IMG/VR virus record: IMGVR_UViG_2534681662_000014
Location: 1 to 24,458 of that record
Direction: 5' to 3' (one strand)
Length of the DNA: 24,458 bases
Source: a virus
Lineage: Duplodnaviria > Heunggongvirae > Uroviricota > Caudoviricetes
Shown here: piece after piece, positions 3,001 through 6,000 of the stretch
Numbering within the stretch: position 1 is the stretch's first letter
Layout of the letters: each line of letters begins with the position of its first letter
Program-made: the position numbers

Positions 3001-6000
3001 TGAATAATTCATAAGCTTCGCGTTCATCTGGTTCTACTTCCAGAGATAGGAGTGCGATTTCATAAGCACGGCGCTCAATATCGTCTCGCACGTCAAGGCT
3101 GCTGATACGCTCTTTAATTTCTTTAATCAGTTCTTTGTCGGTAAAAGTGGTCATTATGCTCCAGCCTCCGGTGCTTTTGGCATTACTGCCCAGTGAGTGA
3201 TATTGACGTTTTCAAGGTCCCCGACCTGAAATGTCCACTGCCATTCTCCGGTTTCTTTTTGTCCCCAGGTGTACCAGAGAGAACGCCAGCCAATTAGCCA
3301 GCCTTCTCCGTTAGCATCGAATAACAAAACACTTTCATTTGCTGGTGGCAGTTCAGTTGACACTGGTATTACTTTGTTTTCCTGTGCTGCACATTTAGCT
3401 TCAAGCGCATCGAATTTACGCACTAGGTATTCAGCATCTGTTTCATTTACTTTCAGATCTCGCGGTACACATCTCCCACGAAGAAACCCTTCCATTTCGA
3501 AAACATTCATGCGCATTTGCGTAACTCCGATAACTCGTTAAAGCGTTCCATAAACATCCCGTAGGCATGGCCCGGAGCCAGTGGAATCACGTTGAACATC
3601 TCTGTTGCCGGGATACCTTCCAGTACAGGCCAGAAAGAGCCATCATCAAGCCCGAGATCGCGGCGTTCGGTTGCCAGCATGATGAGATCGGCATATTTCA
3701 CGGGCGTACTCATAACTGGGGGTAACCCGTATTTCTCACGGATTACGGCGTCTATTTTTTCTTCCATTTGTTTATAGTCAGGAAGAAGGCGTTTCAGTGG
3801 TGCGGGAATGTCCTGGCAATACGCTTCTGTTGCATCATGCATTAACGCTTCAAAAGCAAATTCCTGCGGCACCAGCTGGCTGCAAAGAACCGCATGTTGG
3901 GCGACGCTGTAGAAGTGCGAAAGATGGCCGGCAAAGCGACAGATATTTGAAAGGGAAACCGCGATATCGTTAATATCGATGTCGTCTTTATTTATCCTGT
4001 CATAATAAAAATGCTTCCCGGAAAAAGTTTTAATAAATGACATTTTGTTCTCCACGTATATGCGCTGCACCGCGCTGAATTCTGGTAAAAAGAATCCCTC
4101 ACCATCCGGCGATTATTGAGTAAATTACGTTTCCATAAATGCCCCCGCAGGGGCATTTGCAGTAATGAAATCAGGCGGTGAAAGTACCAATAAAGGTTTC
4201 TACTTTGCTGTCCTTGAATTTCTCAACAAGCAGATCACGAAATTCGTTAGCCATTTCTTCCTGCACCGCCTCCAGCTGAATAATGCGCAGAACCAGTACA
4301 GGACGATCGCCAGTGATAATACTGAGGCGTAATTTAAACGGACGTTCTTTCAGACCTTCAAACGGAACGCATTTAAATTCAAATGCCACTGGCATAATGT
4401 CTTTGGTCTTCGCTTCGACAGACTCCATCAGGGAGCGTTTGCCGCTGAAGTCATTATCTTCAAAATCAGCGGTCTGGTTTGCTTCAATCGTGATTTTACG
4501 GACAGCCGCAGCCGCTTTTGTTGCCTGAATAGCGTCACCATTAGCATCAAAGCCCACAAGATAGTCGGCCCAGTCTTCAATCCATTCTGCCAGTGACTTC
4601 TGGGAGTTACGCTCGCCGTTAACAGACAACAGAGCAGAGAACGGTGCTGTCTTTTTCAGTTTGAGTGTGGCGGTGTTATCTGCGTGACCTGGTTCATCAA
4701 TAGTACCCAGGTTAAGCACACTGACGGCACGCATATTATCAGCATCGATAAAGCAGCGGGTGCCTTCATCTGCAAGATCTTTAGAATAACGGGTAAAGTC
4801 ATCGATGCTGGCAGTGGAAAGCGCACCACGGAAACGGAAGCGATTTAAATTAAATTTTTCCAGATCATGAATGCGGAAATTCTCAGGCAATGCCACAGCA
4901 TCGGCACCAATCTTACTGATAATTTCATTAACACCCTGAGCAGAAATAAGGGCATGGATTTGATTAATTGCGGTTGCGTCTAAGTTCTGAGACATAATAA
5001 GTCCTCACTATATAAAGATATTCAGTGATGAGATAAATAATCAGTTAATTAAAAACGATATTAACGACCTGCTGCGCGGAGTTTTCCGTCAGGTTCACCG
5101 GCAAGAGTCAGTAACTGTCCCTGGTCTTCCTGCAGAATAGTCAGGCGACCACCGCGATTGACATACATCGGCGTTTCGGTGGTGTCTTCTTCGGAAATTT
5201 TCCCGCGGTTAGTCGGGCGAACATATGAGAGTTTGTGTTTGATTTTCACTCGGTTCTCATCAAACGGTTCGATTTCCAGGTTGAGCGAGACCTTACCTTT
5301 GGTTTTCGTGTTCATCACACCGGAAGCGACTTCACTGAGAACTGCGCCGATTTTGGTTTCAAATACGCCGCCGTCCAGCTCCCCGATAAATGCCTGCACA
5401 TCAGTACTGCGTTCGCTAGCCATTTTGCTGCTCCTCATCATATCGACCCTGCAAGGTCGGTTAGTTTCTCCACAAAACAGAGAAGAACACCTGCGGTGAC
5501 TGCCGCCCGGATGGATTGGGTTATGAGCCCGTCGTCCGGTGATGCTCTTCTCTGTTTTGTAAAAAGGACGGTACCAGCCGGAAGCAAGGGTACAAGCTGG
5601 TACCGCCAAGACTACACACAGCATAAAGTTGTGGTGCCGGGTGCCTCCCGGTGCCTGGCGAAGGTTGCACACCAGGCGGGTGGGTATCCACAGAAGGTCG
5701 ACTGTCAGCCTCAACCTTAACCCGCGTGCGCTGAGCCGCATTCACCACAACGCTAAGGATTCTCTCTGGTTGAAAATACTTAGCTGTTATGTGCCTGCTT
5801 TTAGCCACATCAGGCGAGGTGGACCTAGTTATTCCCCAACAACAAGGATTCGGTTAATCTGGTTATCCCCAACAACGCAAAAGGAAAAGAAATGTCCGGT
5901 AATATCTATACGCTGTACAAATCCCACTGTGAAAATGTTGGAAAGTATCGGGGCATTGAAATCAGTGGGGTAGTGTCATCAGTCGAAATAAGCAAAGTTG

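Follow-up and report, generated by a model that had tools for sequence, protein, structure and literature searches.

The DNA considered here lies between positions 5424 and 5891 of a 24,458-nucleotide viral sequence (the window, by which we mean the whole stretch of DNA that was analysed), in a lambdoid prophage of the SfIV / e14 / CPS-53 mosaic type that is integrated beside the tRNA gene thrW. Since thrW marks the attachment side of the prophage, host DNA makes up the left end of the window. The stretch lies between the leftward gene yfdP and an opposite-strand gene for a protein of 144 amino acids (aa), and an initial annotation had described it as GC-rich, dense in repeats and without a believable open reading frame (ORF), reading it as a structured RNA or a protein-binding hub and not as spacer DNA. 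Our analysis suggests that it is probably the transcribed, non-coding, minus-strand leader of the leftward early operon, and that this leader is a mosaic of three RNA modules: a pseudoknotted core like that of the RNA STnc100, a unit of seed and terminator like those of the small RNAs (sRNAs) KilS and DicF, and a three-way junction. Many E. coli chromosomes hold copies that are 100% identical to the stretch, 2,782 of 5,426 complete E. coli genomes have it in one version or another, and phages SfIV, SfV, SfII and others carry it as well. The genes and signals around it are the following.

1369-1444, plus strand: tRNA-Thr(CGU) gene thrW, the sole Rfam match at gathering threshold in the window
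4171-4995, minus strand: yfdQ
5061-5423, minus strand: yfdP, which matches a PHROG family
5436-5431 and 5423-5421, minus strand: Shine-Dalgarno sequence GAGGAG and start codon ATG of yfdP
5444-5459, minus strand: small hairpin CGACC-UUGCAG-GGUCG in the yfdP 5' untranslated region
5892-6326, plus strand: gene for the 144-aa protein of the ECs1072 family (phrog_5286)
6298-6519, minus strand: gene for a 68/73-aa protein (phrog_1744)
6698-6670, minus strand: pL-like promoter TTGCCA-17-TAGATT, among four ACTAAG repeats (6662-6760)
6752-7378, minus strand: ymfK, for a LexA-family cI-like repressor
plus strand: cro-like gene ymfT

A structured RNA on the minus strand

GC content across 5400-5800 is 0.525-0.585, compared with 0.35-0.50 in the flanks, and the symmetrical features catalogued in the initial annotation are all present, at or very near the places it had given. 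A repeat search found the inverted repeat at 5472-5489/5543-5560 to be longer than claimed, with arms of 25 nucleotides (nt), and the 10-bp stem GGTACCAGC/GCTGGTACC to be 100% complementary (5569-5578/5596-5605). The CCGGGTGCC/CCGGTGCC repeat (5637-5656) is the plus-strand image of the hairpin P4 described below, and the two GTTATYCCCCAACAAC direct repeats, at 5828-5843 and 5862-5876, differ from each other by a 1-nt indel. Relative to dinucleotide shuffles, the fold predicted by RNAfold has a z-score of -5.60 on the minus strand and -2.79 on the plus strand; the RNA strand is the minus strand, which has the same sense as yfdP. The earlier suggestion of an sRNA and/or a long structured leader is upheld by three conserved modules with compensatory base changes, seen among homologues from phages of Escherichia, Shigella, Salmonella, Cronobacter, Pantoea and Klebsiella and from P1-like phages, and an STnc100-like domain is detectable with Rfam when the scan is run at a permissive E-value.

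A pseudoknotted STnc100-like core

On its sequence, the minus-strand segment 5784-5628 is a 5' hairpin followed by a pseudoknotted domain (~125 nt) of the STnc100/PasD superfamily, with these predicted parts.

5752-5784, minus strand: 5' hairpin stacked on helix P1 (RNAfold)
5628-5751, minus strand: pseudoknotted STnc100-like core (Rfam match and covariation)
5751-5743/5636-5628, minus strand: core helix P1, GUUGUGGUG/CACCACAAC
directly behind P1, minus strand: conserved joining segment AAUGCGGCUCAGCGCACGCGG
5718-5712 with 5667-5661, minus strand: pseudoknot, AAGGUUG with CAACCUU in the P3 loop
5677-5670/5660-5653, minus strand: core helix P3
5651-5637, minus strand: core hairpin P4, CCGGG-AGGCA-CCCGG

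The permissive Rfam scan, a 701-nt search, matched the STnc100 model (RF02076) to 5781-5558 over model positions 1-206 of 206, with an E-value of 4.7e-8 and 43.4 bits, which does not reach the gathering score of 47; a scan of the whole window at gathering thresholds returned thrW only and no STnc100. Matches below threshold are likewise found in phiES15, SJ46, ST64B and Rac. A 21-mer of the core occurs once in the window with 0 matches expected, and the 22-mer CACCGGGAGGCACCCGGCACCA is common to more than 100 otherwise unalignable viral contigs. The core of the window belongs to a sub-type with the joining segment GAAUGCGGCUnAGCGCACGCGG, of which scans of viral and genome collections yielded 74 distinct cores from Escherichia, Shigella, Salmonella (ST64B), Cronobacter (phiES15), P1-like phages (SJ46), Pantoea, Mixta, Enterobacter and Citrobacter. 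In genome contigs, the sub-type motif gave many chance matches in GC-rich genomes (Streptomyces, Burkholderiales), and these were removed by demanding the P4 motif downstream. In ST64B and phiES15 the place of the 5' hairpin is taken by one that is unrelated in sequence, again stacked on P1.

Clade-by-clade comparison yields a single architecture of P1, pseudoknot, P3 and P4, shared with 27 canonical STnc100 sequences. Covariation was assessed in a block alignment of 58 distinct sequences, 27 of them canonical STnc100 sequences, in which P1 and P4 were taken at fixed offsets. Paired cells amount to 93.9% versus 67.0% in shuffles; the pseudoknot arms and the 5' arm of P3 were placed separately in each sequence, which inflates the percentages for these arms. 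The covariation score is 0.721 against 0.189 in shuffles, none of 500 shuffles reaches it, and slid controls score ~0.1. Six of the nine P1 pairs are changed on both sides, and in P4 a G-C pair becomes U-A in nine sequences and a C-G pair becomes U-A in two. The same position in the core holds at least six complementary pseudoknot sequences that are unrelated to one another, for example AAGGUUG/CAACCUU, AAGGCUG/CAGCCUU, AGACUGACAAA/UUUGUCAGUCU, CAGUUAA/UUAACUG and UGGUUAU/AUAACCA. The minimum-energy fold from RNAfold pairs AAGGUUGAGG locally; we dropped that pairing, as the partner conserved across clades is the P3 loop.

A study of EDL933 lists eleven STnc100 copies; 300-6,400 transcriptome reads were recorded for ten, and a northern blot confirmed one (PMC5331693). 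EcOnc27, an sRNA that was detected bound to Hfq, overlaps a canonical copy (PMC12711010). Canonical cores also occur in tandem pairs, ~484 nt apart in the viral contigs L018, L035, L049 and L069 and ~270 nt apart in L074 and L122.

The same core in Qin, Rac and other phages

Two spacers of K-12, dicF-dicB in Qin and KilS-kilR in Rac, are filled by the STnc100-like core of the same GCGGC-type sub-type as in the window. In Qin (L523 1083-1310) the core lies directly behind dicF and its U-tract and ends ~25 nt before the dicB start codon; in Rac (L327 4503-4230, minus strand) it lies behind the annotated sRNA KilS and ends ~20 nt before the kilR ribosome-binding site. In both, P1 is lengthened to ~15-17 bp (UUUUGUGAUGYGGUG/CACYGCAUCACAAAA). 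RNase E generates the 5' end of DicF; of its two 3' ends, one comes from termination and the other from RNase III (PMC5069750). The 72-nt DicF made by RNase III, in the passage of that paper that cites Faubladier 1990, would end within the 5' strand of the extended P1, which would fit the formation of P1 in vivo. P1-like phages have the core upstream of tciA, and in many members of the sub-type it forms a 5' leader with no terminator behind it.

In other phages the core is broken or absent. In the mEp460 type it is interrupted by an inserted gene, and in L339 and L368 it is missing; these variants keep the 39-nt element described below, the 5' hairpin and a KilS/DicF-type terminator, and immediately 5' of this terminator lies CCACUGCUU, unlike the RprA-type seed. 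The interruption, seen in mEp460 (L127 2561-3000), L329, L369, L416 and L422, falls just after GGUGAAUGCG; in mEp460 the insert bears an opposite-strand gene, and the 3' remnant CACCACAAC of the core, the terminator and the junction remain. On the far side of the immunity region, ST64B (L124 409-597) and mEp460 (L127 324-512) carry C4 antisense RNA and isrK above gathering scores, and Rfam finds no equivalent of either at threshold in the window. In the P1-like phage SJ46 (L126 2551-2701, 3857-3929), the STnc100-like core upstream of tciA is flanked by three tRNA genes; structured RNA modules cluster with tRNA genes here as they do in Klebsiella phages.

A seed and terminator unit with the RprA seed

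Behind the core, the minus-strand segment 5627-5561 is, judged by sequence, the 3' unit of a KilS/DicF-type sRNA, a seed followed by an intrinsic terminator.

5608-5623, minus strand: single-stranded 16-nt seed UGCUGUGUGUAGUCUU, behind P1 and UUUA, equal to RprA nt 62-77
5561-5607, minus strand: intrinsic terminator, stem GGCGGUACCAGC/GCUGGUACCGUC then C and U5

In alignment, the seed is identical to nt 62-77 of chromosomal RprA at 16 of 16 positions and is also present in KilS, ST64B and phiES15; it has one match in the window where 0.03 is expected. When a 13-mer of it was searched in the fetched loci with one mismatch allowed, 18 sequence groups were found, of which 16 are phage contexts with a T-run behind, 14 of these with the 13-mer intact. 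The terminator stem is 12 bp long and GC-rich (5607-5596/5578-5567, minus strand) and resembles the terminators of KilS and DicF, and ST64B and phiES15 have terminators of other sequence at the same position. The marks of the KilS type, for which Rfam has no model, are found: the seed UUGCUGUGUGUAGUC stands directly 5' of a terminator of the UGGCGG...CCGCC type in an early-left leader. Against the DicF model (RF00039) the window scores 19.4 bits for a gathering score of 48, through the terminator part only and with a different seed; KilS itself scores 39.1 bits. The RprA model (RF00034) gives no match at E-values up to 10.

RprA60-105, the part of RprA described as highly conserved, is enough to repress csgD; the GCUG of RprA pairs with CAGC of csgD, as compensatory mutations showed, and ydaM uses the same region (PMC3465796). 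A processed RprA of 47 nt, RprAproc, is active (PMC9262595), and KilS is Hfq-associated and northern-verified (PMC8175672). The window thus appears, from its sequence, to encode an RprAproc-like unit fused behind an STnc100-like body, and by analogy this unit may work like RprAproc without being a member of the RprA family. We found no paper on the identity of the RprA and KilS seeds, nothing on KilS beyond PMC8175672 and nothing on an sRNA at this site in ST64B, in a literature search of incomplete coverage. In the viral contig L516 (5808-5860) the terminator behind the seed, UUUGCCCAUCACAUCGGUGGGCACCUUUUUU, also bears a likeness to that of RprA itself, a hint that RprA and the phage units share an origin.

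A three-way junction that resembles the initiator-tRNA anticodon arm

The third predicted module follows directly and overlaps the end of the terminator.

5467-5565, minus strand: three-way-junction element, 99 nt (fold z-score and covariation)
5565-5541/5491-5467, minus strand: junction helix P1, 25 contiguous bp (RNAfold)
5539-5535/5511-5507, minus strand: junction helix P2, CCGGA/UCCGG
5533-5512, minus strand: strongly conserved GACGGGCUCAUAACCCAAUCCA, enclosed by P2
5531-5518, minus strand: CGGGCUCAUAACCC in the apical hairpin, equal to the initiator-tRNA anticodon stem-loop
5506-5493, minus strand: junction helix P3, a variable hairpin

The fold z-score of the junction is -8.34 against dinucleotide shuffles (RNAfold), and the 5' arm of its P1 begins in the U-tract of the terminator. 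A motif scan gave 110 distinct sequences in 31 groups. Among 34 distinct block sequences, 93.1% of cells are paired versus 83.0% in shuffles (the 3' arm of P1 was located separately in each sequence, which inflates the percentage for this arm); the covariation score is 0.341 versus 0.156, and nine pairs are changed on both sides. The sequence of P3 is variable, and so is its length (14 to 40 nt). In nearly all of the 31 groups the junction lies directly behind a T-run or tRNA genes, the early-operon type almost always after a KilS/DicF-type terminator, and the first genes that it precedes differ (yfdP, yfdR, RdgC-like, Xis-like). No Rfam family matches it.

The segment CGGGCUCAUAACCC equals K-12 metY at 14 of 14 nt, including three G-C pairs and the CUCAUAA loop, with a chance expectation of 0.01 per window. 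BLAST also finds the junction motif kept in Klebsiella phages at ~82% overall identity, where it stands directly after tRNA-Asn and tRNA-Arg genes, downstream of Q, and carries a short stem like that of an acceptor, GGCCUG/CAGGCC, with A or G and then CCA behind it. In Klebsiella phage RCIP0034 (L431 2503-2582) this version is unannotated and looks like a tRNA-like gene without a D arm; the same type occurs in L440, L441, L454, L460, L463, L469, L481 and L503. In the window, thrW (1369-1444) is the only tRNA that ARAGORN and the Rfam tRNA model report, and the Klebsiella version is not called by them either. We found no paper on an initiator-tRNA mimic in phages, again with incomplete coverage of the literature.

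The upstream flank

On the other side of the core lie a 39-nt element and the two direct repeats.

5784-5822, minus strand: 39-nt element CCACCTCGCCTGATGTGGCTAAAAGCAGGCACATAACAG, the 5' edge of the conserved RNA module
5828-5843, minus strand: proximal direct repeat GTTGTTGGGGAATAAC
5862-5876, minus-strand reading: distal direct repeat GTTGTTGGGGATAAC, 15 nt upstream of the ATG of the 144-aa gene

Over 38 nt, the 39-nt element is 97% identical in Cronobacter phage phiES15, compared with 77% for the adjacent core, and it may be a promoter or the 5' leader or start of an RNA gene. By eye, it offers only poor -10/-35 candidates. Within it, TGGCTAAAAGCAGGCA (5804-5789, minus strand) has by eye the GG-N10-GC spacing of sigma-54 promoters, in a weak TGGC-N10-GC form, and a start ~12 nt downstream would fall at the 5' hairpin; we take this as a lead only. 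On the upstream side of the element the contigs diverge completely, and at least six different opposite-strand ORFs are found there; many of the divergent contigs retain one or both of the GTTGTTGGGGA(A)TAAC repeats, the distal one always just upstream of the Shine-Dalgarno sequence of the opposite-strand ORF. The direct repeats, which the initial annotation had counted among the structured features, are present, but they lie outside the conserved RNA core, in the shared flank. Both resemble the 5' segment of core P1 (repeat search). Phage phiES15 (L125 ~2600-2864, reverse strand) has an opposite-strand ORF that is not annotated, MFSVRVELRNSETADYTALHEKMKAHGF..., immediately upstream of the 39-nt element, in the same kind of slot as the 144-aa gene of the window.

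Proposed mechanism

We suspect that transcription starts at the pL-like promoter (~6698-6670) and passes through the 68-aa gene and antisense to the 144-aa gene; a local start within the 39-nt element is the alternative. Most transcripts would stop at 5561 to give an RNA of ~225 nt, which might be trimmed, like RprA and DicF, to a ~65-nt sRNA of seed plus terminator; this would work in trans, together with Hfq, on targets of the RprA type, for example csgD and dgcM/ydaM. The transcripts that read through would be the only ones able to form the 25-bp duplex of the junction, a plausible RNase III substrate. Processing, probably by RNase III as in the dicBF operon, would then separate the sRNA from the yfdP-yfdQ-yfdR mRNA and set the 5' end of that mRNA, so that terminator and junction together would form both an attenuator and a gate for processing ahead of the early-left genes.

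Several points weigh against this reading. The match to STnc100 stays below its cut-off and that to DicF far below, parts of both block alignments were fitted to the structure, and the pairing percentages of the separately placed arms are inflated as described. The related loci were fetched with exact motifs, so the invariance of those motifs in the sets is there by construction. In Qin, Rac and the P1-like phages a ribosome-binding site, and not a seed and terminator, follows the core, which may mean that the core is primarily a cis-acting leader and not part of a trans-acting sRNA. The pL-like promoter is ~900 nt away, through a convergent gene, and a scan for sigma-70 promoters found no consensus beside the RNA on either strand. 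All statements about expression are borrowed by analogy from homologues, and RNase III cleavage is suggested by stem length only.

Alternative explanations

That the stretch encodes a protein after all is very improbable, in spite of two annotations to that effect: PGAP places a frameshifted pseudogene at 5438-5748 (minus strand), and in SfIV yfdP is extended to 226 aa (SfIV_34), an ORF that is also open in the window (5061-5741, minus strand). No Pfam or PHROG family matches any open frame of the stretch, unlike the flanking yfdP, 144-aa and 68/73-aa genes, which all match PHROGs; several frames are open at once, as expected in GC-rich sequence; frame lengths vary among near-identical copies; and the open frame in this E. 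coli prophage differs from that in the Salmonella ST64B homologue, so that no single frame is conserved among the homologues compared. Because of the lack of family matches, the several open frames and the change of frame in ST64B, both the frameshifted hypothetical protein and the 226-aa ORF are annotation artefacts. PGAP itself begins yfdP at the ATG at 5423-5421 and flags the remainder as frameshifted, and the substitutions are compensatory in RNA helices. The initial annotation had also allowed that the inverted repeat might mark the ends of a small insertion like a miniature inverted-repeat transposable element. Its arms are indeed long and nearly perfect, but we now give this idea next to no credence, since the 18-bp repeat is the basal stem of a conserved, covarying three-way junction whose interior is conserved too and whose 5' arm overlaps the terminator U-tract. 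The element is single-copy in the window and stands at the same position, behind a T-run or tRNA genes, in nearly all of the 31 groups, and neither scattered copies nor an empty site were seen. For the flank the case is different: we think it possible, if on the whole unlikely, that 5823-5891 with its direct repeats, perhaps together with the 39-nt element, acts as DNA, either as promoter or operator of the interchangeable opposite-strand genes or as a recombination linker. The repeats and the 39-nt element are kept beside at least six unrelated divergent ORFs, and the point at which identity stops is exactly 5822/5823 or 5876/5877, depending on the phage; on the other hand, the sigma-70 scan was negative on both strands, and the repeats look like degenerate copies of the P1 5' segment and may be mere recombination scars. 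The protein-binding hub of the initial annotation is possible for the 70-bp repeat part only.

A serious rival, because the pseudoknotted domain abuts ribosome-binding sites in Qin, Rac and the P1-like phages, is that this domain is mainly a cis-acting leader (a riboswitch-like sensor, a protein-binding operator or a put-like/anti-Rho element) that controls elongation into, or translation of, the first early-left gene, with seed and terminator as its expression platform or as an independent neighbour. Most members of the sub-type lack a terminator and have a ribosome-binding site and ATG 20-40 nt behind the end of the core, the genes concerned including dicB, kilR and tciA. Its closing helix, conserved joining and loop nucleotides, pseudoknot and variable insertions liken it to ligand- or protein-binding RNAs more than to typical Hfq sRNAs, and either a terminator or a ribosome-binding site follows it, as in the expression platforms of riboswitches. 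With a hypothetical antitermination of the put/nut type, only its position in early and late leaders, upstream of or beside terminators, is compatible. Nevertheless, no ligand, protein partner or alternative antiterminator or anti-Shine-Dalgarno pairing has been identified, and canonical STnc100 copies resemble stand-alone genes, several of them by eye with a promoter-like TTGACA-N17/18-TAAATT directly upstream and a terminator directly downstream, besides the one that overlaps the Hfq-bound EcOnc27. We regard a cis-acting role as tentative and somewhat unlikely. A further proposal, which we find doubtful, holds that the junction is not merely an RNase III stem but a functional mimic of the initiator-tRNA anticodon arm, either a decoy or sensor for VapC-type PIN toxins or methionyl-tRNA synthetase, or a translational operator that engages the P site of the 30S subunit or initiation factor 3. 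The substrate of VapC from S. Typhimurium LT2 is tRNA-fMet. The 14-nt identity to metY and the persistence of the motif in Klebsiella phages, beside tRNA genes and with an acceptor-like stem and CCA, speak for mimicry, and the junction is not specific to yfdP, because unrelated first genes follow it. That VapC generates tRNA fragments in LT2 is mentioned, by citation, in PMC9879122. However, the likeness was recognised after the fact, only three of five tRNA stem pairs are kept, neither ARAGORN nor the Rfam tRNA model calls the junction, and the motif was itself the search pattern, so that its invariance among the viral contigs is by construction. No more probable, in our estimate, is the broader view that the junction founds an undescribed class of phage RNA, a leader element or, in Klebsiella phages, a CCA-ended tRNA-like gene, which mimics the initiator-tRNA anticodon arm as a decoy or sensor for nucleases or other enzymes directed at tRNA-fMet or as a translational operator directed at the P site, and that, separately, the STnc100-type pseudoknot, which the leaders of dicB and kilR also have, might act as a sensor in cis and not be the body of an sRNA. 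The reading that we prefer remains a three-module leader that would release an sRNA.

Setting of the leader

The 144-aa gene converges on the 68/73-aa gene, their 3' ends overlapping by ~29 nt, and any pL transcript that reaches the RNA must run antisense through the 144-aa gene. The four ACTAAG repeats around the pL-like promoter are candidate operators of the YmfK repressor. Downstream of this promoter, the leader ACAGGCAGGACGCCCAC is identical to that of ST64B. Between the promoter and the 68-aa gene, at 6563-6590, the plus strand has a terminator-like hairpin, AAGCGTCCTGTAGGGCGCTT followed by T6, with no plus-strand gene ending nearby. At the place of the small hairpin in the yfdP 5' untranslated region, related contigs carry hairpins of other sequence. 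K-12 CPS-53, the namesake of yfdP, was discarded as a relative, as the whole RNA is missing there and homology runs only from the ribosome-binding site onward; pawZ at that locus is an unrelated pseudogene.

Implications

About half of the complete E. coli genomes carry this stretch in some version, but annotations leave it blank or call it a broken hypothetical gene. One pseudoknotted domain appears to be common to the dicF-dicB, KilS-kilR and yfdP leaders and to the multi-copy STnc100 RNAs of pathogenic E. coli, which would bring all of these under a single structural model. A widespread prophage sRNA unit bears the exact RprA seed that controls csgD and dgcM, and prophages may by this means tap into host regulation of biofilm formation and the envelope stress response. 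The initiator-tRNA-like junction is a new and well-defined RNA motif.

Comparison with known systems

The core shares with STnc100/PasD a full-length model alignment, the segments UGGUGAAU and CACCGGGAGGCACCCGGCACCA, the helices P1, pseudoknot, P3 and P4, a place in prophages and a terminator behind it. It differs in that the joining segment GCGGCUCAGCGCACGCGG replaces a CCCCC...GGGG hairpin, in its extra 5' hairpin and in its seed. The context differs as well: STnc100/PasD RNAs are found in the late region near Q, esterase and holin/lysis genes (bioRxiv 10.64898/2026.05.13.724894; PMC12370729), whereas the window has an early-left leader, its copy sitting between the immunity region and yfdP. 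The dicF-dicB and KilS-kilR RNAs are likewise leaders of a leftward early operon and share with it a DicF/KilS-type terminator unit and a GCGGC-type core. KilS of Rac also has the seed of the window, whereas that of DicF is unrelated. The order of parts is reversed, however, since in Qin and Rac the sRNA and its terminator come first and the core stands next to the dicB or kilR ribosome-binding site, whereas in the window the core is followed by seed and terminator and then by the three-way junction, which is absent from Qin and Rac.

The likeness to RprA is confined to its 3' part. As in RprA60-105 (RprAproc), the seed, 16 of 16 nt, lies directly 5' of a Rho-independent terminator, but the terminator is another one, the 5' half of RprA, which holds its rpoS-activating pairing region, has no counterpart in the window, and the unit of the window is phage-borne and lacks an Rcs-type promoter context.

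Two kinds of known RNA invite comparison with the junction. With the initiator tRNA (metY/metZ) it has the identical anticodon stem-loop CGGGCUCAUAACCC in common and, in the Klebsiella version, a place in a tRNA cluster and an NCCA end; unlike the tRNA, it has neither D arm nor T arm, only three G-C stem pairs and a basal stem of 25 bp. Operators in mRNA that mimic tRNA exist, as in the thrS leader, and RNase III processing hairpins are known from phage early leaders such as the lambda N leader. Like such hairpins, and like the 3' end of DicF (PMC5069750), the junction would place a long perfect duplex between an sRNA and the first early ORF, but a simple RNase III site needs no conserved three-way junction, and the element of the window, for which cleavage is a prediction, has one.

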